64,000 nucleotides of DNA from Candidatus Woesearchaeota archaeon. GTDB taxonomy: Archaea > Nanobdellota > Nanobdellia > Pacearchaeales > UBA284. The stretch is taken from NCBI GenBank assembly GCA_964396475.1, contig CAYNFE010000004.1, positions 6,519-70,518 of the forward strand, given 5' to 3'. The notes beneath the pieces are model-generated. The model ran no database searches. It was not told the origin of the DNA and was given only the letters and a program-made list of their open reading frames with translations. The first letter of the stretch is position 1; the number at the start of each line of letters is the position of its first letter. The position numbers were made by a program, and so were the translations under genes. Below, piece by piece: positions 4,443 to 62,098 of the stretch.

Positions 4443-5840
4443 ATGGAATTTAAGGCATTCAAGGATTTAGAATTTAAGATAAATAAAAATTATATAGTTG
4501 ATAAAATGCCAGAAGAGACATTTGATATTATTCTTGAGCCTGTTTTTAATTATATAGGGATAGGAAATGCGAGATTATGGCTGCTTGTGAATGATACAGA
4601 TCTGAAGATAGTTTATGGTTTCAATAAGAGAGGACATATTCCTAAAGAAGATTATCAAATTACTTACAAAACAACTGATAAGGATATAGATAGAGATATG
4701 ATAGAACTATTAGAAAAAGAGCCTAAAAAATTTGATGAAGAGTATGCTTCAAGAATTTCATTAAAAACTGGAAAAGATTATCAAGATATTAAAAAAAGAA
4801 TAGCCAAAGAAAGATTAGAAGGGAAGATAAAAATAGATCACTTTATCAATAAAAGAAAAAATCACTTACAATGGGTCTATGAAAACTTAGAGCCAATTCA
4901 AGTCTGTTATAATCCTTCCCATATTTTGACTTTAAAGGCAAAAGGAATTATTTATGGAAATAAAAATGAACATGGAGCATATATTCAAACAAGAGAAGAA
5001 AGATTACGTAAAGTATGGGAGAAAAATAAAGAATTACAAAAACAATATTATAATTTCTCAAGATTTTTTTATGCAGGAGCTTTTCCTTTGTATATATCTG
5101 AGAATAATCAAAAAATAAAATTGGGAATTTTGGAAGTAGATGAATTAGAAGATATCATAGGTGGGCCTACCAAACCATTACTCAAAAGCAAATTTAATTG
5201 GGCCTTTAACATTATCAATAACACAATAACCCCTATATCTCTCACACAGTTTACAGATGATAAAAATGATGATTTTTTAATCTATGTTGCAAATTCTTTA
5301 AAAAAAGTCAGTGATTTTAAGGATTATTATGGAGGAGAACATTCTGAAAGAGTTAGAGTTTATTCTTTGATGGCTGGGAAAATTTTATTATCTATTGGAA
5401 AATTAGATAAAAAAAGCTTGTTTAGATTGGAGTTAGCTTCTATGTTGCATGATGTAGGGAAATTAGGTATCAATGAGCATATCCTAAGAAAAGAAACAAT
5501 GCTTACTAAAGAAGAGCGTAAACTTATGCAACAACACACAGTATATGGGAAGAAAATATTACAATCAATGAAACATTTCAAAGATTTAATTCCCATAGTT
5601 ATGCATCATCATGAGAGATATGATGGAAAAGGATATCCTGGAGAGAGGAAAGGCAAAGATATCCCTCTGGAATCAAGAATAATTGCCCTTGCAGACACAT
5701 TTGACGCAATAACTTTTGGAAGGCCTTATAGAGATATTAGATCAAAGAATGATGCTATAAAAGAAATAAGATTAAATTCTGGAACCCAATTTGATCCAGA
5801 AATAGCAGAGATCTTCATAAAAGCTGTTCAGGAAATATAA
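4443..5840 (+). CDS. HD-GYP domain protein (putative c-di-GMP phosphodiesterase) with an unrecognised ~300-aa N-terminal region
   Basis: The C-terminal third contains HDVGK...HHERYDGKGYP...D.FDA, the HD-GYP signature. The N-terminus has no motif I recognise. Confidence 0.85.
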   Translation: MEFKAFKDLEFKINKNYIVDKMPEETFDIILEPVFNYIGIGNARLWLLVNDTDLKIVYGFNKRGHIPKEDYQITYKTTDKDIDRDMIELLEKEPKKFDEEYASRISLKTGKDYQDIKKRIAKERLEGKIKIDHFINKRKNHLQWVYENLEPIQVCYNPSHILTLKAKGIIYGNKNEHGAYIQTREERLRKVWEKNKELQKQYYNFSRFFYAGAFPLYISENNQKIKLGILEVDELEDIIGGPTKPLLKSKFNWAFNIINNTITPISLTQFTDDKNDDFLIYVANSLKKVSDFKDYYGGEHSERVRVYSLMAGKILLSIGKLDKKSLFRLELASMLHDVGKLGINEHILRKETMLTKEERKLMQQHTVYGKKILQSMKHFKDLIPIVMHHHERYDGKGYPGERKGKDIPLESRIIALADTFDAITFGRPYRDIRSKNDAIKEIRLNSGTQFDPEIAEIFIKAVQEI

Positions 5841-24749: not shown

Positions 24750-24772
24750 AATGAAAAAGAGGAAAGGTAAGA
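24748..24772 (+). repeat. 25-bp direct repeat, copy 2
   Basis: Identical to 22884..22908; it spans the heparinase-like stop codon and the GGDEF start codon. Confidence 0.85.
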
Positions 24773-25392
24773 AAGAAGAAAGGTATGTTAAATTAGATGA
24801 GATAAGTAAACAAATTAAGAGTGAAATAAAAAAGCCAAAACCAGAAGTTCGAGCTCTTGGAAGACTTTTTAATGAGCTCTATTCATATGCAACAAGAGAT
24901 CATCTAACTGGTGTATTCAACAGAAGAATTCTTGATGAATTACTTGGTAGAGAGATGGAAAAATCAATAAGACAGGGATTGCCTCTAGCTGTTATAATGC
25001 TTGACATTGATAATTTTAAACAATATAATGATACATATGGTCATTTACAAGGAGACATGGCTCTTAGAGCTATAACAAAAACAATTCAAAGATTAACGAG
25101 AAAAGAAGATTTTGTTGCGAGATATGGAGGAGAAGAATTCATTATTGTACTTCCAAACACGAAACTGAAAAAAGCAAGAGAAATAGCTGAAAGAATAAGA
25201 AAAAAGATTACAGAAACAAAAATAAAAGCAATAAGTAAAAGGATTGAAAAAGGATTTGAAAAAATTACAGTAAGCATGGGCATATCTAAATTAACAGAAG
25301 CAGGAATACAATATATGTTAGATCAGGCTGATATTGCTCTATACAAAGCAAAAGAAAAAGGCAAGAATCAAGTTGTTATGATTAATGATTAA
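24751..25392 (+). CDS. GGDEF domain diguanylate cyclase (stand-alone, with a short N-terminal helix)
   Basis: RDHLTGVFNRR, the active-site variant RYGGEEF, an RKED I-site exactly 5 residues upstream of it, and a C-terminal ALYKAKEKGKNQV. The start is placed at the ATG at 24751 rather than the TTG at 24742. Confidence 0.9.
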   Translation: MKKRKGKKEERYVKLDEISKQIKSEIKKPKPEVRALGRLFNELYSYATRDHLTGVFNRRILDELLGREMEKSIRQGLPLAVIMLDIDNFKQYNDTYGHLQGDMALRAITKTIQRLTRKEDFVARYGGEEFIIVLPNTKLKKAREIAERIRKKITETKIKAISKRIEKGFEKITVSMGISKLTEAGIQYMLDQADIALYKAKEKGKNQVVMIND

Positions 25393-29811: not shown

Positions 29812-31425
29812 ATGCCTATCAAAAATAAACTTAAAATTGAATTAGCTGGTTTCTGGCCAAAGATAGAGATAAAAGACAAAAGATTAAGAAAGAAAATTGG
29901 CAAGGATTTCTTAGGGCCAGATTATATAGTTAGTTTTCTCCAGAAAGCTGTTTACAAATCAGTGCCTTTAATAAAAGGATTAGAAGAAGAAATACTGAAA
30001 GAAGAAAATATAAGAGAGACAGCATTCAATAAATTTTCAAGTTCTATGCTAAGAGGTCACTCTCTTGACGGCACTGCAGGAATTGCTTTAAAATTACATG
30101 GAAGCAAACTTCTTGATTCTGCTCTTACAGGAATACCATTTTCAAGAAGTTTTGTGACTAGTGGAAGAAGAGCGAAAATACATAAAGAAAACATAATAAT
30201 TCCAGACTCTATTGATAAAAAATATGATCTTAGAAAAGAATATGTAGAGACATCAGAAACAGCTATAGAAATTTATGATAAAATAATTGATAAAATTGGA
30301 AGCAAACAATTAGCTTCCAAAGTTGTTCCTTATAATAATCCATGTGATCTCTATATAAGGTTGCCTTTAAGTTCTATCATGACTCTTGCTCTTGAATTAG
30401 AACAGCAAAAACAAACTAATCAGATATGGATGCCAAGAGAAGTGGAAGAATTAATATCAAGATTAGAAAATGATATACTGCCTGATATAGATATGAAAAT
30501 AATGTATGATACAAGAAAAGCTGCTCTTCGTGATACTTATCTTCATTGGTATGTATTCAAAGGTAAAGATGATAATTTTGCAACAGAAATGGCAAAATTA
30601 TTGGGAAATCCTCTTGAACCAACAATAATACCAACTTCAATAAACATACAACCAACTAAGGGCTTGAGAAAGAAATTAAAATATCTAGAAGAAAAAATAA
30701 GTTTCACACACACTATTTTAAATCCTAAAGAATTATCAAAAGCTTCCAGAGAAAACTTGTTGTTGTTAAGAGATATAGTTGATTCTTATAACGATTCTAT
30801 CTCATTAAAAACAGTAAGTAGTTTATCATGGCGCGTTTGGAGTGAGCAAAAAAGACATTCAACTTTAAGACAGTGCGTAGAGTCAATATATAGAGCAAGT
30901 GACAGAGCATATGAAATCATAGAATCATCTAGAAATAAAAAAGATCTTTTCAAGAGATCAGAAAAAGCTTTTGTTATTCCACCAGAAATAAAAAAAGATA
31001 AAGAGCTTCTCAGAGATTATGTATGGATATCTTCAAAACAACACCTATTAAGAAAAGAACTTCTTGATGCTAGTATAGAAGAAAGAGATGCTATCTATAT
31101 TGTTCCAAGAAATACTAGATTAAGGACAGTAGAGACGTATGATTTGATAAACCTAATTGATTTGGAACTTCCATTAAGAACTTGCACAACTTGTGAGCCT
31201 GAAAGACGAGCAACTGCAGAAAAGAAAGCAGAAATTATAAAAGACACCTTAAGTGGTATTATCCCAGAGCTCAATTATTTAATAGGCCCAAAATGCATTC
31301 TTGGTTATTGCACAGAGCCAAAATTCTGCGGAAAAATCCTAGAATACAATCCAGATTACAGTGTATCTTTGCATAATCATATAAGAGAAAATCTGATAAA
31401 GAAGGCTTCAGAAAAAATAAGTTAA
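29812..31425 (+). CDS. Hypothetical protein; possible divergent tandem ThyX-like (flavin-dependent thymidylate synthase fold) protein
   Basis: Residues 345-360 (EQKRHSTLRQCVESIY, nt 30844-30891) resemble the ThyX motif RHRxxSxxxxSxRY. IVPRNTRLRTVETYDLINLIDLELPLR resembles the ThyX helix block. The N-terminal half carries a degenerate copy (RGHSLDGTAGIALKLHG...SGRR). Confidence 0.35.
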   Translation: MPIKNKLKIELAGFWPKIEIKDKRLRKKIGKDFLGPDYIVSFLQKAVYKSVPLIKGLEEEILKEENIRETAFNKFSSSMLRGHSLDGTAGIALKLHGSKLLDSALTGIPFSRSFVTSGRRAKIHKENIIIPDSIDKKYDLRKEYVETSETAIEIYDKIIDKIGSKQLASKVVPYNNPCDLYIRLPLSSIMTLALELEQQKQTNQIWMPREVEELISRLENDILPDIDMKIMYDTRKAALRDTYLHWYVFKGKDDNFATEMAKLLGNPLEPTIIPTSINIQPTKGLRKKLKYLEEKISFTHTILNPKELSKASRENLLLLRDIVDSYNDSISLKTVSSLSWRVWSEQKRHSTLRQCVESIYRASDRAYEIIESSRNKKDLFKRSEKAFVIPPEIKKDKELLRDYVWISSKQHLLRKELLDASIEERDAIYIVPRNTRLRTVETYDLINLIDLELPLRTCTTCEPERRATAEKKAEIIKDTLSGIIPELNYLIGPKCILGYCTEPKFCGKILEYNPDYSVSLHNHIRENLIKKASEKIS

Positions 31426-35599: not shown

Positions 35600-35715
35600 G
35601 GGCCTGTGGTCTAGTGGTTAGGACGCAACCCTCACAATCAGAACCTGCGGTTCCGATACTTCCCAAGTTCTGACGGGAACGGTTGAGATCCTCGGTTCAA
35701 TTCCGAGCAGGCCCA
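35600..35715 (+). tRNA. tRNA-Val (anticodon CAC) with a ~43-nt intron at the canonical 37/38 position
   Basis: Hand fold: acceptor GGGCCTG/CAGGCCC, D arm GTCT-AGTGGTTA-GGAC, anticodon stem CAACC/GGTTG with loop CTCACA..., T arm CTCGG-TTCAATT-CCGAG, discriminator A. No CCA is encoded. The intron (~35637..35679) contains an internal 7-bp helix TCAGAAC/GTTCTGA. Confidence 0.85.
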
Positions 35716-49157: not shown

Positions 49158-49772
49158 ATGAAATACGGAAAAAAGACAAAAACTATCAGAACAATTTTCT
49201 TTGTATTATTATTGATAGTTTTAATTCTTGCTCTCTATGTGGTTTTTTTTAGGCTGGATCTTTTTAAAGGTAAAGTAGATGAAGCAACTATGAATAAAAC
49301 TACTGAAATAATTACAGAATTTGATGGTATTAATATATACACTTTAAGCTTAGATGAAATAACTGCCTTAGGTGAACCTGGAATCTGTGCTTTAGTTGAA
49401 ATATATAAGAATGAGTCTTCTAATGCAGACCAGAGATGGGCAGCTATCATAGGTATAAGTGCTATTGGTCATGATCTTGATTTATCAAATAAAGTTCTAC
49501 CTTATCTTAAAGATGGACTTGATGACGCAGATGTCAATGTTCGTGTAACATCTGCTTCTGTTGTTTTATCCCATGGCTCAACAGATGGAATTCCTATCCT
49601 TATTGCAGACGTTGATAATGATTCAATACTTAAGCCTAGTGAGCCACCAATGCCAATCATGTCTTATTGTGCTGAAACCCTAACAATCTACACAGGCCAA
49701 GATTATGGTATAGACAAAGAAGCTTGGCAGTCATGGTGGGATACAAATAAAGATAGTTTTAATTTAGAATGA
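49158..49772 (+). CDS. Membrane-anchored HEAT-repeat protein
   Basis: N-terminal TM (IFFVLLLIVLILALYVVFF), then HEAT-like repeats (LPYLKDGLDDADVNVRVTSASVVLSHGSTDGIPILI). Confidence 0.55.
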   Translation: MKYGKKTKTIRTIFFVLLLIVLILALYVVFFRLDLFKGKVDEATMNKTTEIITEFDGINIYTLSLDEITALGEPGICALVEIYKNESSNADQRWAAIIGISAIGHDLDLSNKVLPYLKDGLDDADVNVRVTSASVVLSHGSTDGIPILIADVDNDSILKPSEPPMPIMSYCAETLTIYTGQDYGIDKEAWQSWWDTNKDSFNLE

Positions 49773-50929
49773 GGAAAAAATTATTAATAATATTTTTAGC
49801 AGTATTCCTTATCAGTATAAGCTTTGCAGCAGCTGAAAATACTTGCAAAAGAAATAGTGGTGATGGTTGTACTATTACTATAACAATGAAAATAGCTTTT
49901 TCTGGAACAGACAATGCAACAATAGAGAACTGGGTAAATGATATAACTAATACTTGGAATGGTTATACTTTTGGAGATTGTAAATGTCCAGTAAAAGTTG
50001 AGGTTGAGTGGAAAAATACAGGTAGTGCAAGTTGTCAAGCAAATTATAGCAGCTCAGAAGCTGGATATCATTGTATTAATGTTTCTAACACTACTCATGT
50101 TCAGGCAGCAGGTAATAGTTATAGAGGTTTTATGTGGGGCATATCAAAAAATGGCTCAAGTATAGCTGGTTTTTGGGGGACCTCAATAAACACTAATCTA
50201 GCAGGAGTTAGTGGAACAATTCATGATGCTGCACATGAAGCAGGACATATGCTAGGCTTACCTGATGAATATAATGCCTCAACAAACTCATATCCTCCAA
50301 ATATAATGGGAAGAACTTGGAGTGCTAATGCAACTCCAACACAAGGGCATATAGATCAAATAGTAGATAAGAATTGTGAAGGAGATAATGCCAAATGTCC
50401 TGATGAATGCTGTTGTGGTGATGGTGTAGTTCAGAAAGATAAAGGAGAAGAGTGTGAAGAAAATGATGATTGTAAAGAAGGAATTAATGCTATGTGCCTA
50501 AACTGCAAATGTTATTATATAGATATTTGCGGAGATGGTGAGGTAACAGGTGAAGAGGAATGTGATCCTATGGCAGATCCTACTGGCTGTAATGAAACTG
50601 AGACTTGTACAGACACTTGCATTTGTGAAGAAATAGAATTAAGTGTAATAATAAAAGAGCCTGACAAAGATGATATTTTTGGTCTAGATGACTGGATAAC
50701 AGTAGAGCTTGACATAGATAGTGCAGCAGATATAGAAGAAGTAGAATTCTATATAAGAGAAAAAGGTGATGATTATGGAAATCCAGAAGAGACTATTATT
50801 GAAGAACCTTGGGAATGGGAATTCTTAGGTGGAGACTTTGGGCCAGGAGAGTATGCCATACAAGTTATAGTTTATGATGAAGACGGCAATGAAGCTGACG
50901 ATGAAGTAAAATACATATTAATTGAATAG
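49769..50929 (+). CDS. Secreted zinc metallopeptidase-like protein with Cys-rich CGDG repeats and an acidic C-terminal Ig-like region
   Basis: Signal peptide (ISISFAAAEN), HEAGHMLGLPDEY (HExxH...DEY), and CCCGDGVVQKDKGEECE / CGDGEVTGEEECDP repeats. The start overlaps the upstream stop (ATGA). Confidence 0.65.
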   Translation: MRKKLLIIFLAVFLISISFAAAENTCKRNSGDGCTITITMKIAFSGTDNATIENWVNDITNTWNGYTFGDCKCPVKVEVEWKNTGSASCQANYSSSEAGYHCINVSNTTHVQAAGNSYRGFMWGISKNGSSIAGFWGTSINTNLAGVSGTIHDAAHEAGHMLGLPDEYNASTNSYPPNIMGRTWSANATPTQGHIDQIVDKNCEGDNAKCPDECCCGDGVVQKDKGEECEENDDCKEGINAMCLNCKCYYIDICGDGEVTGEEECDPMADPTGCNETETCTDTCICEEIELSVIIKEPDKDDIFGLDDWITVELDIDSAADIEEVEFYIREKGDDYGNPEETIIEEPWEWEFLGGDFGPGEYAIQVIVYDEDGNEADDEVKYILIE

Positions 50930-50936
50930 AATAATC

Positions 50937-51908
50937 TTATTCTTTAATTCTTTTGACTAGTTCAACTTTTGTTCCAGATCCTAAAACAAGATTTCCTTCT
51001 TCTTTCTGCTTATTGATGAATTCTTCAGGAGCATTGCCATAATTAATTTTGTCAAAGGTCTCTCTTATCATAGCCATTCCTCTTCCTCTTACTGATCTTT
51101 TCATACCTATTCCAGCATCTATAAAATTAAAGCTAATATCAGATTTATTTTTATTATAGAAAGCTAATATCTTTCCGCCTTTTTTTCCTTGATATCCATG
51201 AAAGCAAGAATTATTAACAACTTCTTTTGCTACAAATTCTATTTTTTCTTTCGCTATGTTTATCTTAGACCTTTTGAAAGCATGCTCTATTAAACGATAA
51301 ATGGCTGCTGCATACATTTCTTCAGCAGGAACAATAATTTTATGGTCTTTTTTAATTCCTCCAAGATATTTTCCTACTTCATGTATGGCTTTAAGTTTAT
51401 CTGTATCAACAAAATCATCAATAATTTTTACCCAATAATTTTTACCTATATTTTCTAATGCTTTGGCATCTTTTTTAATTTTCTGTTTTTTTCTTTCTAA
51501 TACATTGATAAATTTTGAAGAGACCTTCCCCTTAAGGTCATTTAATGATTTATAGGTTTTTGGCTGGAATTGCAAAGGCAGTTCAAAAACACTTTCTGTC
51601 ATTCTGATTGAATTTTCTACTCCTTCCTGCAAGGTTGAAAGAAAAACAGATTCCTTCTGGTTCTTTATTAAACGCATAATCAAACCAATCCCTCTAGAAC
51701 CTATATAATTAAGATATTCCATGTCTACGATATAATTATATTTCCTATCAAAACAATAAGTATCTATTTTTTCTTTTATTTCCATATAAGGAGAAGTGTC
51801 CAAAGAGCCGCCGAAAATTAAAGAACAAGCATCTTCACTTTTTTCGTTCGTAACTATTACTTCTAGATTTCCCTTAATCAAAGGCTCGAATTCAAATATT
51901 TGAACCAT
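50937..51908 (-). CDS. Fusion of a STAS (anti-sigma-antagonist-like) domain and an RsbW/SpoIIAB-like HATPase serine kinase domain
   Basis: The N-terminal DMEYLNYIGSRGIGLIMRL resembles the STAS phospho-serine loop. The C-terminal EVVNNSCFHG (N-box), IDAGIGM (G1), GRGMAMIRE and GSGTKVEL (G2) match HATPase_c_2. Confidence 0.7.
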   Translation of the reverse strand: MVQIFEFEPLIKGNLEVIVTNEKSEDACSLIFGGSLDTSPYMEIKEKIDTYCFDRKYNYIVDMEYLNYIGSRGIGLIMRLIKNQKESVFLSTLQEGVENSIRMTESVFELPLQFQPKTYKSLNDLKGKVSSKFINVLERKKQKIKKDAKALENIGKNYWVKIIDDFVDTDKLKAIHEVGKYLGGIKKDHKIIVPAEEMYAAAIYRLIEHAFKRSKINIAKEKIEFVAKEVVNNSCFHGYQGKKGGKILAFYNKNKSDISFNFIDAGIGMKRSVRGRGMAMIRETFDKINYGNAPEEFINKQKEEGNLVLGSGTKVELVKRIKE

Positions 51909-52104
51909 ATTCTTTTATCGAAACATTTCTTTATAAAATTTTCTTTTTAAAGTAGTTACAAACCAAAAAATACAAAAATGCCCAAACAAAACATTTAAAT
52001 AGTATAATGAATATATATTCATATGACTTAATAGTCTTATTAAATTAAGATTATAAGTTAATTAAAATATAAAATGAATATAAATTCAATAGGAGGTAAA
52101 TAAA

Positions 52105-52539
52105 ATGCCTAGTGGAGATAGAACTGGTCCAGATGGTTTAGGTCCTAGAACTGGAAGAGGATTAGGTTACTGTGAAGGTTATGACAGTCCAGGATTTACA
52201 AAAGGAGTTCCAATGGGTGGTCGTGGCTTTGGAAGAGGATTTGGCAGAGGTTTCAGAAGTAGAGGCTTTAGAGGAGCTCAAGCTTTTGGCAGAGGAAGAG
52301 GCTTTAGAGCAAGAGGCCTTGGAGCAAGAAGAATTTTTAGGAGAAGGTTTCAACCATATGCTTATGAATATGAAGACTATGAATACCCTTACGAAGACTA
52401 TGAGTATGAACCAACAAAAGATGAACTAAAAGAGATCTTAGGAGAAGATAGAAAAGCAATACAAGATCAAATGAAAGCTCTAGAATCTGAACTTAAAAGG
52501 ATCAAGGAAAAATTAAAAAACTTAGAAATAGAAGAATAA
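52105..52539 (+). CDS. DUF5320-family protein (RG/FG-rich, with C-terminal coiled coil)
   Basis: The N-terminal MPSGDRTGPDGLGPRTGRGLGYCEG matches my memory of the DUF5320 signature. It is followed by (GRGF)n repeats, a YEYEDYEYPYEDYEYE block and a heptad tail. AGGAGG lies 7 nt upstream. Confidence 0.7.
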   Translation: MPSGDRTGPDGLGPRTGRGLGYCEGYDSPGFTKGVPMGGRGFGRGFGRGFRSRGFRGAQAFGRGRGFRARGLGARRIFRRRFQPYAYEYEDYEYPYEDYEYEPTKDELKEILGEDRKAIQDQMKALESELKRIKEKLKNLEIEE

Positions 52540-52559
52540 ATATAGAAAAACAAAGGAAA

Positions 52560-52982
52560 ATGAATAAGAGATTTAAAGAATCTGTAACAAAGACTGCCAG
52601 AGCATTGTATAGAACACTACCAATACTTTTTGGTATAATAATACTAGTAAGTTTAGCAAACATCTTGATTCCAAAAACTTTTTTTATTTCTTTATTTCAA
52701 AAAAATATCTTGCTTGACTCTTTTATCGGCAGTCTGATAGGTAGTATTCTAGCTGGAACACCTATAACTAGTTATGTTATTAGTGGAGAATTGCTCAAAC
52801 AAGGTATAAGTCTTATAGCTGTAACAGCTTTTATAGTATCATGGGTTACTGTTGGTATAGTTCAACTTCCAGCAGAAATAATGCTTTTAGGAAAGAAATT
52901 TGCAATAGTTAGAAATGTCAGTGCTTTCATCTTAGCAATAATAGTCGCTATCATAACTGTCTTAATCCTCACACTAATATAA
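52560..52982 (+). CDS. Predicted permease, subunit 1 (4 TM)
   Basis: Hydrophobic 140-aa protein. It is paired with the next ORF, like two-component permease systems. Confidence 0.5.
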   Translation: MNKRFKESVTKTARALYRTLPILFGIIILVSLANILIPKTFFISLFQKNILLDSFIGSLIGSILAGTPITSYVISGELLKQGISLIAVTAFIVSWVTVGIVQLPAEIMLLGKKFAIVRNVSAFILAIIVAIITVLILTLI

Positions 52983-52984
52983 AA

Positions 52985-53536
52985 ATGAAAAATAGAAAAC
53001 AAAAAAAGAAAACTAAAGAAAAAATCAAGGCAAAAATAGAAATGAGCTATAGTCAGTGGTATTTTCTTGCAGGAGTTATTATTCTAAGTGTTATTATTTT
53101 CTTAATTAAACCAGACTCTTTTGCTCCTAGTTTTCAATTTTTTTGGAGCATATTTAAAAAAATAATTCCAATAATCGCTCTTATCTTTGTATTAATGTTC
53201 ATTATCAATTTTTTCATCGCGCCAGAAAAGCTTGTTAAATATCTTGGAAAAAAATCAAAAATAGGATGGCCTGTAGCAATAATAACAGGAATCATCTCAA
53301 CTGGGCCAATATATATGTGGTATCCTTTACTTAGTGATTTACAAAAGAAGGGAGTAAGAAATGGTTTTATTGCAACTTTTTTATATAATAGAGCTGTAAA
53401 ACTTGCCCTAATACCTTTGATTATATTTTATTTTGGTTTAACATTTACAATCGTTCTTACAATAGTTATGATAATAGCCTCAGTCTTTCAGGGCTTAATC
53501 GTAGAAAAAATTCTAGGAGGTAAAAAGAAAAAATGA
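52985..53536 (+). CDS. Predicted permease, subunit 2
   Basis: Hydrophobic 183-aa protein starting 2 nt after the previous stop. Confidence 0.5.
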   Translation: MKNRKQKKKTKEKIKAKIEMSYSQWYFLAGVIILSVIIFLIKPDSFAPSFQFFWSIFKKIIPIIALIFVLMFIINFFIAPEKLVKYLGKKSKIGWPVAIITGIISTGPIYMWYPLLSDLQKKGVRNGFIATFLYNRAVKLALIPLIIFYFGLTFTIVLTIVMIIASVFQGLIVEKILGGKKKK

Positions 53537-53835
53537 AAATAGCCATAGCTTCAACAGATAAAACAGAAAAATCAGAAGTAAGTCCAGTAAGTGGCAGAGC
53601 ACCCTTTTACTTAATCTTTGAAAACAAGAAACTAGTAAAAGTGATTTCAAACCCTTTCCGTATAGGTGGTGGCGGAGCAGGATTTAGTGTCGCACAAATG
53701 CTAGTTAATGAAAAGGTTGATCTTGTTATCGCTGGAAACTTTGGTCCAAATATGCTAAGTGCATTAGAATCCAAAGGAATAAAAGTTAAAGTCGTACAAG
53801 GAAAAACTGTTGAAGAAACTCTTAAAGAGTTATAA
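53533..53835 (+). CDS. NifB/NifX-family (dinitrogenase Fe-Mo cofactor biosynthesis domain) protein
   Basis: MKIAIASTD...VSGRAPFYLIFE...GGGAGFSVAQMLVNEKVDLVIAGNFGPNMLSALESKGIKV is the typical NifX-like stand-alone domain. ATGA overlap with the upstream gene. Confidence 0.75.
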   Translation: MKIAIASTDKTEKSEVSPVSGRAPFYLIFENKKLVKVISNPFRIGGGGAGFSVAQMLVNEKVDLVIAGNFGPNMLSALESKGIKVKVVQGKTVEETLKEL

Positions 53836-53851
53836 AAGATAAAAGAAAAAA

Positions 53852-54400
53852 ATGCCAAGAAGAAGACGGATGAGAAGAATAGCCAGAATGCCTAGGTTTA
53901 ATCAGTTTGCTCCAATAGGTCCAATTATGCCAGATGAAATTATCTTGACACTTGGAGAATTTGAAGCTATAAGATTAAAGGATTTTCAAGGATTAGAGCA
54001 GGAAAAAGCAGCTAAAGAGATTAACATAAGTCAACCAACATTCCATAGATTAATTCTATCTGCAAGAAAAAAGGTAGCTGATGCTTTAGTCAATAATAAA
54101 ATAATAAAAATAAAAGGAGGTGAATATGAAATGGTTCAACCAATAGTATCAATGCAACAAGGAGCAGGAAGAGGAGCAGGTCAAGGCAGAGGACGTGGTT
54201 TTGGTCAAGGAATGGGCAGAGAAGCAGGCATGGGCGCAGGAAGAGGAGCTGGAGGCAGAGGTAGAATGGGTGGCTTTGCAGCAGGTCCAGGAGGAATTTG
54301 CAAATGCCCAAAATGTGGATATGAAGAGCCACAGATAAGGGGCCAACCTTGTGTGAATAAGAAATGCCCTAAGTGTGGAACTTTAATGATCAGGGGATAA
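53852..54400 (+). CDS. DUF134 (HTH) protein fused to a Gly/Arg-rich segment and C-terminal zinc ribbon
   Basis: PRFNQFAPIG...LTLGEFEAIRLKDFQGLEQEKAAKEINISQPTFHRLILSARKKVADAL matches the DUF134/sigma-70-r4-like pattern. GRGAGQGRGRGFGQGMG repeats and CKCPKCG...CPKCG follow. Confidence 0.75.
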   Translation: MPRRRRMRRIARMPRFNQFAPIGPIMPDEIILTLGEFEAIRLKDFQGLEQEKAAKEINISQPTFHRLILSARKKVADALVNNKIIKIKGGEYEMVQPIVSMQQGAGRGAGQGRGRGFGQGMGREAGMGAGRGAGGRGRMGGFAAGPGGICKCPKCGYEEPQIRGQPCVNKKCPKCGTLMIRG

Positions 54401-54415
54401 AAAGCAGGAGTATTA

Positions 54416-54796
54416 ATGAAAATAGCATGCGGGTCAAATGATCTAAAAAACTTTACAAAAGAACATTTCGGTGACTCCAAATATTTTTTAATATATAATA
54501 TAGATAGAGATAATTACAAATTACTAGAAAAGATAGAGAATACCTCACCAAAAGAAGAATTACATAGCGATCCTAAAAAAGCCAAATCTATAGCAACTAC
54601 CTTAAATTCTAGAAATGTTAAAGCAATCTTTGCATATGTTATAGGGCCTAATATAATAAGAATTAGAAAAAAATTTGTTCCTATAATTTCAAGAATATCA
54701 GATATGACAAAAGCTTTAGATAAATTAAAAGAACATATTGAAGATGTAGAAGGTGAATTAAATAACGAAATTAAAAATATAGTGTATATAGAATAA
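54416..54796 (+). CDS. Second NifX-like domain protein (divergent)
   Basis: MKIACGSND...EHFGDSKYFLIYNIDRDNYKLLEKIEN parallels the N-terminus of NifX-like proteins. Confidence 0.5.
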   Translation: MKIACGSNDLKNFTKEHFGDSKYFLIYNIDRDNYKLLEKIENTSPKEELHSDPKKAKSIATTLNSRNVKAIFAYVIGPNIIRIRKKFVPIISRISDMTKALDKLKEHIEDVEGELNNEIKNIVYIE

Positions 54797-61027: not shown

Positions 61028-62098
61028 ATGGCTTGGGGTAAATTTATTGAAAAATACTGGTATCTTATATTTCCCTTATTTTTTGGTGGAATTAATCTTT
61101 ATGCTTGGATGCAACTAGGCAATGCTGAACAAAGGCTAGATAGAACTCAACAAGAAGTTAGAGAATTCATAACTGATCAAAATATAAAGAAACTTGATGA
61201 GTTATTAATAAAATCTAGAGAAGAAAGAAAAAAATGGGTTGACTTGGAAAAATATCTAAATAATCATCCTGAAATTATCTATGATTATAAAATAAATAAA
61301 ATCATAAAAAAATACAATCTAAACAAAACAGAAGAAAAAAGATTTAATAATTTGATTGGGTTTTTGGAAGAGAATTTTAATTATACAACTATTGACTCTC
61401 TTTTCACTAGTAAAGAATTTGAATTAGATACTACTTTAGTTAGAAGAATTGAAAAAGGAAAAGAGTGGTATAAGGAATGGTATAAAGAACATAAAGGTGA
61501 AAACCCTTATCAAAAAGTTTTTACAGAAAAATCTATAAAAGAGTGTTTAGATTTCTTAGATAAAAATGATTCCTTCTTTACTGATATCATAAAAAAATTC
61601 AATTTAACAAACCCAAAAACAAAAGAGTTATTAGTTAGTCTGATTAGATTAGAGACTCACTTAGGAAAAAATACTGGAAAAGATAAGGCTTTTAATGTCT
61701 TGGTTTCACACTATGTTTTTAATCCAAAAAGGAAAACAAGGAATTTTGCTCTAAAACAACTCAACTATCTGATTAAACTAATGAATAAGATAGATCCTTT
61801 TTCTGCTAGTTCAATAATGGGTGCTATAGGCTGGACTCAAGGAATACCAAAAGCATTGAATGATCATATAGTAGATTTTGATAAGGACGGAAAAATAAAT
61901 CAATTTGCTCTTCCAGATGCAGTTGGATTTACACTAAATTATTTTGGTGTAAGAGAAGGAGATAAAGGAACAAAAGACATAGCTAGAGTATTAAAATGGT
62001 ATAATCCACATGATAAATGGTATGTTCCTACAATCCTAGAGCTCGCTGATTCATTATATAGTTATACAGATATAGAAACAATTTCAGAGAATAATTAA
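61028..62098 (+). CDS. Membrane-anchored lytic murein transglycosylase-like protein (MltB/SLT_2 family)
   Basis: LIRLETHLGKNTG (compare GVETRWG with the catalytic Glu) and GAIGWTQGIPKALNDHIVDFDKDGKINQFALPDAVGFTLNYF (compare GAMGYGQFMPSSY..YAVDFSGDGHINLW...DAIGSVANYF). N-terminal TM helix. Confidence 0.75.
   Translation: MAWGKFIEKYWYLIFPLFFGGINLYAWMQLGNAEQRLDRTQQEVREFITDQNIKKLDELLIKSREERKKWVDLEKYLNNHPEIIYDYKINKIIKKYNLNKTEEKRFNNLIGFLEENFNYTTIDSLFTSKEFELDTTLVRRIEKGKEWYKEWYKEHKGENPYQKVFTEKSIKECLDFLDKNDSFFTDIIKKFNLTNPKTKELLVSLIRLETHLGKNTGKDKAFNVLVSHYVFNPKRKTRNFALKQLNYLIKLMNKIDPFSASSIMGAIGWTQGIPKALNDHIVDFDKDGKINQFALPDAVGFTLNYFGVREGDKGTKDIARVLKWYNPHDKWYVPTILELADSLYSYTDIETISENN

Follow-up and report, generated by a model that had tools for sequence, protein, structure and literature searches.

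A fused STAS and RsbW-like kinase protein in a Woesearchaeota-like archaeon as a candidate one-chain partner switch

What might a protein that joins both halves of a bacterial kinase/antagonist pair in one chain do in an archaeon? The question is raised by a 64,000-nucleotide stretch of Candidatus Woesearchaeota DNA (contig CAYNFE010000004.1 of assembly GCA_964396475.1; hereafter the window, in whose coordinates positions are given unless a locus is named), where a complete coding sequence with an ATG start, at 50937..51908 on the minus strand, specifies 323 amino acids and a stop codon. The encoded protein consists of a STAS domain, a linker and an RsbW-like kinase domain, and the reading frame is supported by the list of open reading frames (ORFs), by full-length homologues with the same architecture and by an AlphaFold2 model. 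To our knowledge archaea lack sigma factors; an anti-sigma function therefore cannot apply in this host, and the output of the protein must differ. Our analysis indicates that the window protein is a genuine and probably active fused STAS-RsbW-type module. As for its mode of action, the explanation in which we place somewhat more belief than doubt is a self-contained partner-switching module made of one polypeptide, in which a helical linker of ~70 residues connects an RsbV/SpoIIAA-like STAS domain to an RsbW/SpoIIAB-like GHKL serine kinase.

Domains, motifs and conservation of the fused protein

The protein falls into three parts, which, like every feature of the gene given below, are encoded on the minus strand. 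The N-terminal part (residues ~1-118; 51555..51908) is a SpoIIAA/RsbV-like STAS domain and the C-terminal part (residues ~189-323; 50940..51344) is a GHKL serine-kinase domain of the SpoIIAB/RsbW type (HATPase_c_2, PF13581); between them lies a helical linker (residues ~119-188; 51345..51554) that is specific to the protein family described below. Hidden Markov models applied to the single protein gave borderline scores: Pfam STAS matched residues 22-117 with E=2.7e-4 (21.1 bits, gathering cutoff 22.6) and HATPase_c_2 matched residues 197-292 with E=4.2e-6 (27.2 bits, gathering cutoff 27.4). Among NCBIfam models, the anti-sigma factor antagonist superfamily TIGR00377 matched with E=2.1e-10 and SpoIIAB with E=5e-4, and the match to the SpoIIAA equivalog was weak. 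The linker matched no credible Pfam family, giving noise matches with E>0.06 only.

An exhaustive search was needed to recover the family to which the protein belongs. Word-indexed searches returned the query alone when started from the single sequence and three proteins when started from a profile; phmmer run against 1.84 billion cluster representatives (E<=1e-3) returned 29 proteins, about 19 of which are full length (273-391 amino acids) and align over both domains and the linker. We refer to the window protein as P0001 and to a second Woesearchaeota protein, encoded at locus L001, as P0002; other P and L labels denote further relatives and their loci. Source annotations of the relatives are automatic ("ATP-binding protein", "hypothetical protein", "anti-anti-sigma factor" or "anti-sigma regulatory factor"), and all relatives whose gene context or source name was examined are bacterial, except for the two Woesearchaeota proteins. 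A bacterial metagenome-assembled genome (MAG), GCA_964419125.1, encodes at least three paralogues. Scans for related loci returned the Woesearchaeota MAG of P0002 alone from GTDB, the known loci again from metagenomes (L018 being the L009 locus repeated), and none from viral contigs. The fused STAS-kinase family is rare and uncharacterised.

Across the alignment of 19 homologues, which are 20-34% identical to the window protein, invariant residues mark both the predicted phospho-acceptor and the nucleotide-binding motifs. The best match of the window protein among PDB sequences is the antagonist TM1442 (1sbo), and in this alignment Ser71 (codon TCT, 51696..51698), within the loop YIGSRGIG at residues 68-75, pairs with the conserved serine of SYMDSAGLG, which we take to be the phospho-acceptor of TM1442. 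Ser71 is invariant (19 of 19) and lies at the N-terminus of helix alpha-2, which spans residues 71-82 in the structural model; G34 is likewise invariant. When the family profile was compared with PDB sequences, SpoIIAB matched with E=4e-12, TM1442 with 3.4e-10, and both RsbW and RsfB with 1.4e-8; on the STAS side the profile matches include TM1442, RsfB and SpoIIAA. Within the kinase domain, the profile placed E229 and N233 of the N box (A227-KEVVNNSCFHG-Y239; 51192..51230) on the Glu and Asn of SpoIIAB SEAVTNAIIHGY, D264xGxG of the G1 box (D264-A-G-I-G268; 51105..51119) on DEGVG, and the GkGT of a G3-like box (G310-S-G-T313; 50970..50981) on NKGTT, and the G2 box (G275-R-G277; 51078..51086) also aligned to SpoIIAB. 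In these boxes the family shows no variation at E229, N233, Y239, D264, G266, G268, G277 or G312, and conservation at G310 and T313 is 90% or more. The ATP lid between the G1 and G2 boxes is not of normal length, counting 6 residues (M269-R274) in the window protein versus ~22 in SpoIIAB; the profile puts the lid of the family 11 residues below that of SpoIIAB, and that of the window protein is the shortest in the family.

Structure prediction gave the same division. An AlphaFold2 model based on a 34-sequence alignment (mean pLDDT 90.8, pTM 0.89; a single-sequence run with pLDDT 34 was discarded) contains a canonical STAS domain, a four-helix linker at residues ~131-188 (helices 131-152, 158-166, 171-179 and 182-188) and a Bergerat-fold domain, and the linker carries a conserved W159-x-K-I-[IL] motif ("RWxKIL" in the family consensus). 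When the model was compared with the PDB by Foldseek, the top matches for the C-terminal half were SpoIIAB (1l0o, 1th8, 1til and 1tid, target-normalised TM 0.70-0.73), RsbW (6m36 and 6m37, target-normalised TM 0.80-0.85) and UsfX (8jzt and 8ih8, the latter also within 0.70-0.85), and those for the N-terminal half were the STAS antagonist 4hyl, SpoIIAA (1thn_B and 1th8_B) and RsbV (6m36_B). Because the family alignment and profile and the structural matches add to the borderline single-protein scores, the assignment of a STAS domain and an RsbW-type kinase domain is secure. A first-pass annotation made from the letters of the window had proposed both domains, placed Ser71 at the position of the phospho-acceptor and read N, G1 and G2 boxes in the kinase; each of these proposals is borne out, the ATP-binding residues being invariant in the family rather than degenerate.

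Phosphatase genes and two-tier loci in bacterial relatives

The same annotation held that in bacteria the two domains are separate proteins, which does not agree with what we found: the same fusion occurs in about 20 relatives, of which those examined are bacterial bar two, and Rv1364c, CapK and VapK, discussed below, are fused as well. The bacterial loci show with which enzyme the fusion is associated. In five of nine, a gene for a SpoIIE-family PP2C phosphatase lies directly downstream of the fused gene, with stop and start codons often overlapping (L009 for P0004, L012 for P0005, L008 for P0007, L013 for the P0008 cluster and L014 for P0009), and these phosphatases usually carry sCache and/or HAMP sensor domains. 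The other four loci (those of P0003, P0006, P0010 and P0030) have no adjacent phosphatase. The genes 3' of the fused gene in the bacterial loci encode a PP2C, an M50 peptidase, a hexapeptide transferase or a TPR protein, and a STAS gene lies immediately 3' at none of the loci examined. Given the PP2C linkage, the family is a fused form of the classical kinase/antagonist pair, probably working in bacteria with a sensor PP2C; the linkage and the invariance of Ser71 both favour self-phosphorylation on this residue. At the P0003 locus we also noted that a 203-residue Peptidase_M50 gene of the site-2 protease family (L007 8939-9550; also L017 3240-3851) replaces the PP2C gene, overlapping the fused gene at its stop codon.

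We infer from these likenesses the following cycle of docking, phosphotransfer and release. The unphosphorylated STAS domain would dock on the kinase domain in the manner of SpoIIAA on SpoIIAB, and the ATP-bound kinase would phosphorylate Ser71, either within one chain or across a dimer. The phosphorylated STAS domain would then be released, leaving either the kinase surface or the STAS surface free for a partner, and a Ser/Thr phosphatase would reset the switch, a role that in the bacterial relatives may fall to the sensor PP2C (sCache/HAMP-SpoIIE) encoded directly downstream. The archaeon would encode its phosphatase and target elsewhere, or might reset the switch by protein turnover; the output there cannot be a sigma factor.

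Two of the PP2C-linked loci suggest a second way of reading the fusion. L008 (5729-10488) and L013 (3772-8517) each encode an RsbW-like kinase, a STAS protein of 214-217 residues, a TPR protein, the fused STAS-kinase and an sCache(-HAMP)-SpoIIE protein, a two-tier layout reminiscent of the RsbRST/RsbUVW cascade. RsbT is an activator of the PP2C RsbU, and the fused protein might by analogy be an upstream module of the RsbS-RsbT kind, whose kinase, once freed from its own STAS domain, would bind and activate an enzyme acting on a second STAS/kinase pair; in the archaeal form of this proposal the activated partner would be a non-adjacent enzyme. The full two-tier layout at L008 and L013 and the PP2C directly 3' at five bacterial loci speak for such a module. 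We nevertheless judge it improbable, since the neighbouring PP2Cs are membrane sensor phosphatases (sCache/HAMP) that apparently have their own input and for which no RsbU_N-type docking domain was reported, SpoIIAB is the closest named NCBIfam kinase model and RsbT gave no match, most loci lack the second STAS/kinase pair, and neither archaeal locus has a PP2C.

A third reading, and the main rival of the self-phosphorylating module, concerns the substrate. CapK (HTH-STAS-GHKL) and VapK (STAS-GHKL) are kinases from operons for bacterial immunity and for toxin-antitoxin systems (EMBO J 2026, PMC13373217). They are reported to phosphorylate a separate STAS protein encoded directly downstream, CapS or VapS, and their internal STAS domain is described as regulatory (PMC13373217), so that a fusion does not by itself imply intramolecular phosphorylation, as the first-pass annotation had argued it would. 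Following this logic, the internal STAS domain of our family would be a regulatory or ligand-sensing gate, and the true substrate would be a separate protein that is phosphorylated in trans and, in the archaeon, encoded elsewhere in the genome. The domain order is that of VapK, and P0006 (L005 / L006 10001-11176) has an N-terminal HTH_17 domain (E=7e-17) that gives it the HTH-STAS-kinase order of CapK. The separate STAS and RsbW-like genes clustered at L008 and L013 would provide trans substrates in some bacteria, and the archaeal gene evolves fast and varies in position, as accessory and conflict genes often do. Against these stand the gene order, with a STAS gene directly 3' at no locus and a PP2C there in five of nine bacterial loci, and the canonical serine, invariant in the internal STAS domain of all 19 homologues, which a purely regulatory STAS would not need. 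A stand-alone STAS gene was not found in the window, and there is neither a viral association nor a defence-system one: PADLOC, consulted because of the CapK/VapK analogy and the fast evolution of the archaeal gene, gave noise only, P0006 scoring through its HTH against a generic HTH model. We set the association with defence systems aside, and consider a CapK-like trans substrate unlikely.

The archaeal host, the second archaeal copy and their gene neighbourhoods

That the host is archaeal, as the first-pass annotation had it, is shown by the window as a whole, which encodes aIF2-gamma, aIF5B, TBP, MCM with an archaeal winged helix, an RPA-like OB protein, TFE and L15e, at a GC content of ~30% throughout. 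A 116-nucleotide tRNA at 35600-35715 (plus strand; Rfam 57 bits) was missed by ARAGORN and has a length that fits an intron-containing archaeal tRNA. The closest relative of the window protein is P0002, from a Candidatus Woesearchaeota MAG in which the fused gene lies at L001 10001-10984. Its genome is collinear with the window over a block running from MetRS to TFE-rhomboid-TBP-MCM-RPA (TBP 90%, MCM 85% and MetRS 83% identical), which makes the host of the window gene a Woesearchaeota-like DPANN archaeon.

The two archaeal proteins are sisters in 98 of 100 bootstraps of a neighbour-joining tree, nested among members that are bacterial by context. Because they form one clade among bacterial members, an old horizontal transfer from a bacterium into an ancestor of Woesearchaeota-like DPANN archaea seems most likely. 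The transfer would not be recent, since the GC content of the fused gene (0.298) and that of its third codon positions (GC3, 0.216) match those of the window (0.305 and 0.198 +/- 0.033). Unexpectedly, P0001 and P0002 are only 34-35% identical to each other, whereas the core genes of the two genomes are 62-90% identical, and the two fused genes occupy different slots in the collinear block, that of P0002 sitting between the rhomboid gene and TBP. This gap indicates either rapid divergence or ancient paralogy with differential loss. Also between the rhomboid and TBP genes, at L001 9200-9892 (minus strand), is a gene for a 230-residue membrane-anchored protein with GHGD ... DFCHSGDF motifs and marginal Pfam matches to Peptidase_C13 and Peptidase_C14 (caspase/legumain-like). 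It has no counterpart in the window, and we rejected this cysteine peptidase as a conserved partner.

Several observations weigh against an active, self-phosphorylating module in the archaeon. Both Pfam scores of the window protein fall slightly below the gathering cutoffs; the 6-residue ATP lid might impair nucleotide binding; and the 34% identity of the archaeal copies, together with their differing positions, fits relaxed or diversifying selection, or paralogy. In the 64-kb window, no PP2C gene (as the first-pass annotation had already observed for the vicinity), no second STAS gene and no second HATPase_c_2 gene were found when all six-frame ORFs were searched by phmmer with bacterial PP2C, STAS and RsbW queries and 30 ORFs were compared with Pfam, and, like the window, the ~20 kb around the P0002 copy yielded no phosphatase, partner STAS or obvious target. 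To these is added the precedent of CapK and VapK that the STAS domain of a STAS-GHKL fusion can be regulatory and the substrate a different protein.

The same low Pfam scores, the lid (the shortest in the family), the low identity to P0002 relative to the core genes and the lack of a cognate phosphatase or partner nearby could also be the marks of a decaying or catalytically dead relic of a transferred gene, a pseudokinase that would serve at most as a binding scaffold. We hold this to be decidedly improbable. The reading frame is intact and full length and has a proper archaeal promoter, the AlphaFold2 model is confident, and the base composition is fully adapted to the host. Moreover, P0001 and P0002 both keep the ten positions that never vary in the family, the Mg/ATP ligands and Ser71 among them, for which the chance at ~35% identity would be roughly 0.35^10 in the absence of purifying selection; that every invariant residue is retained despite such low identity speaks for catalysis and Ser71 having stayed under selection. 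The promoter is a TATA-like TTTATAAA at 51930..51937 (minus strand), read from the sequence ~25 nucleotides 5' of the ATG and preceded by an A-rich, BRE-like stretch. By general knowledge of archaeal promoters, its position suggests a leaderless, monocistronic transcript. Scans for sigma-70 promoters and intrinsic terminators, bacterial signals that are irrelevant to an archaeon, found nothing on the strand of the fused gene.

If the fused protein is a self-phosphorylating switch, its archaeal target has to be sought beyond the sigma factors. Partner-switching modules with other outputs are known, CapS being a transcriptional repressor and VapS an antitoxin (PMC13373217), and some archaeal species are reported to have modules of the RsbRST type (PMC9237108). 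Because of such outputs, the puzzle that the first-pass annotation saw in a host without sigma factors becomes smaller. The P0001 and P0002 genes are each a few kb at most from those for TBP and TFE, and one of them divergently adjoins the TBP operon. It is conceivable, and in our estimate a long shot, that the imported module was rewired in Woesearchaeota as an "anti-factor" acting on an archaeal-specific target such as the basal transcription factors TBP, TFB or TFE. Its support goes no further than the synteny shared by these two closely related genomes; if a basal factor were the target, the start of archaeal transcription would be governed by a partner switch, much as anti-sigma factors govern it in bacteria.

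In the window the fused gene is monocistronic and converges with a gene for a secreted, very Cys-rich protein of 386 residues (49769-50929, plus strand), which has a zincin-like motif, HEAGHMLGLPDEY (HEAGH), and no significant Pfam family. Upstream lies a divergent operon (52105-54796, plus strand) that encodes DUF5320, two half-size ArsP-type permeases (a split ArsP), a NifX/NifB-like Nitro_FeMo-Co protein and a DUF134 protein, with a 126-residue ORF at 54416-54796; the DUF134 protein combines a sigma-70 region-4-like helix-turn-helix (E=9e-4), a Gly/Arg-rich stretch and a C-terminal CxxC...CxxC zinc ribbon. This operon was considered as a partner and rejected, as the association is not kept at the other archaeal locus.

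Elsewhere in the window we noted further genes. One encodes a 213-residue GGDEF diguanylate cyclase (24751-25392, plus strand; Pfam E=2.5e-48) whose GGEEF active site, at residue 126, is intact and which has an RxxD I-site at residue 117. Another encodes a 465-residue HD_5 protein (4443-5840, plus strand; E=7e-36), an HD-GYP phosphodiesterase whose HD lies at residue 336 and whose GYP lies at residue 397. Cyclic di-GMP signalling is generally regarded as bacterial, and the two genes form a bacterial-type cyclic di-GMP pair in an archaeal window; taken together, the fused protein, the GGDEF protein and the HD-GYP protein point to these tiny archaea having taken up several signalling modules from bacteria. 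The archaeon also encodes an enzyme of the peptidoglycan-cleaving kind, with an SLT_2 lytic transglycosylase domain (61028-62098, plus strand; E=8.5e-20), which may be relevant to a DPANN lifestyle involving bacteria. Finally, a 537-residue protein at 29812-31425 (plus strand) contains two stretches matched to ThyX (Thy1) and is unusually long for a flavin-dependent thymidylate synthase; its gene lies directly 3' of NrdR-like and ribonucleotide-reductase-like ORFs, both identified by eye.

Comparison with known partner-switching systems

The systems to which the fused protein is closest are SpoIIAA-SpoIIAB and RsbV-RsbW of Bacillus and UsfX-RsfB of Mycobacterium. Both folds are shared with these pairs (Foldseek target-normalised TM 0.64-0.85), as are the serine that opens STAS helix alpha-2, the N, G1, G2 and G3 boxes and, in the bacterial relatives of the window protein, the PP2C linkage. 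Unlike them, the window protein is a STAS-linker-kinase fusion held together by a family-specific helical linker of ~70 residues, has a much shorter ATP lid and resides in a host without a sigma factor. Unlike TM1442, which has an Asp before the phospho-acceptor, the family has Gly or Ser before Ser71. The Chlamydia-type Rsb system consists of a sensor RsbU PP2C with a periplasmic domain, RsbV and RsbW, and resembles the bacterial relatives in having membrane sensor PP2Cs (sCache/HAMP-SpoIIE in the relatives) beside an RsbV/RsbW-type pair; it differs in that the equivalents of RsbV and RsbW are fused in our family and that the archaeal copies have no adjacent phosphatase.

CapK and VapK share with the family the (HTH-)STAS-GHKL order, with the HTH optional (P0006), and an output that is not a sigma factor. 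They are activated by single-stranded DNA, proposed to bind at the STAS/GHKL interface (PMC13373217). We compared the CapK and VapK sequences of Appendix Table S2 of PMC13373217 with the family profile by hhalign and obtained a match to VapK over 48 N- and G1-box columns (probability 77%), no match to CapK, and STAS-level Cap/Vap alignments of <1% probability. Close to the position equivalent to Ser71, VapK appears by eye to have Pro and Vibrio cholerae CapK Leu or Ala, an unverified reading given alignments of such low probability. SpoIIAB (E=4e-12) is a far better match to the family profile than either kinase. Directly downstream of the fused gene in the window there is a convergent, unrelated gene and no capS- or vapS-like STAS gene. 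Because the family has no downstream STAS gene, keeps an invariant serine in its own STAS domain and is followed by a PP2C in bacteria, we do not count it among the CapK/VapK proteins; nor did PADLOC show a defence context for it.

Neither the mechanism class nor fused kinase-STAS proteins nor non-sigma outputs are new, and the practical value of the finding is modest. The window protein would add a sigma-less DPANN archaeon as a further example of a bacterial serine-phosphorylation switch reused for a non-sigma output, and, if it does phosphorylate itself, it would reduce the partner switch to a minimal form of one protein and offer a convenient model for docking and release within one chain. 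For such a reaction there is a parallel in Mycobacterium tuberculosis Rv1364c, a multidomain regulator (PAS-PP2C-GHKL kinase-STAS) that is reported both to phosphorylate and to dephosphorylate its own STAS domain (PMC7693655). Like the window protein, Rv1364c holds kinase and STAS in one polypeptide; unlike it, Rv1364c has the kinase before the STAS domain and adds PAS and PP2C domains in the same chain, and the match of the family profile to 3ke6 is weak (E=5e-3), sequence similarity being at the superfamily level only. Rv1364c serves as a precedent for autophosphorylation in a fused kinase-STAS protein.

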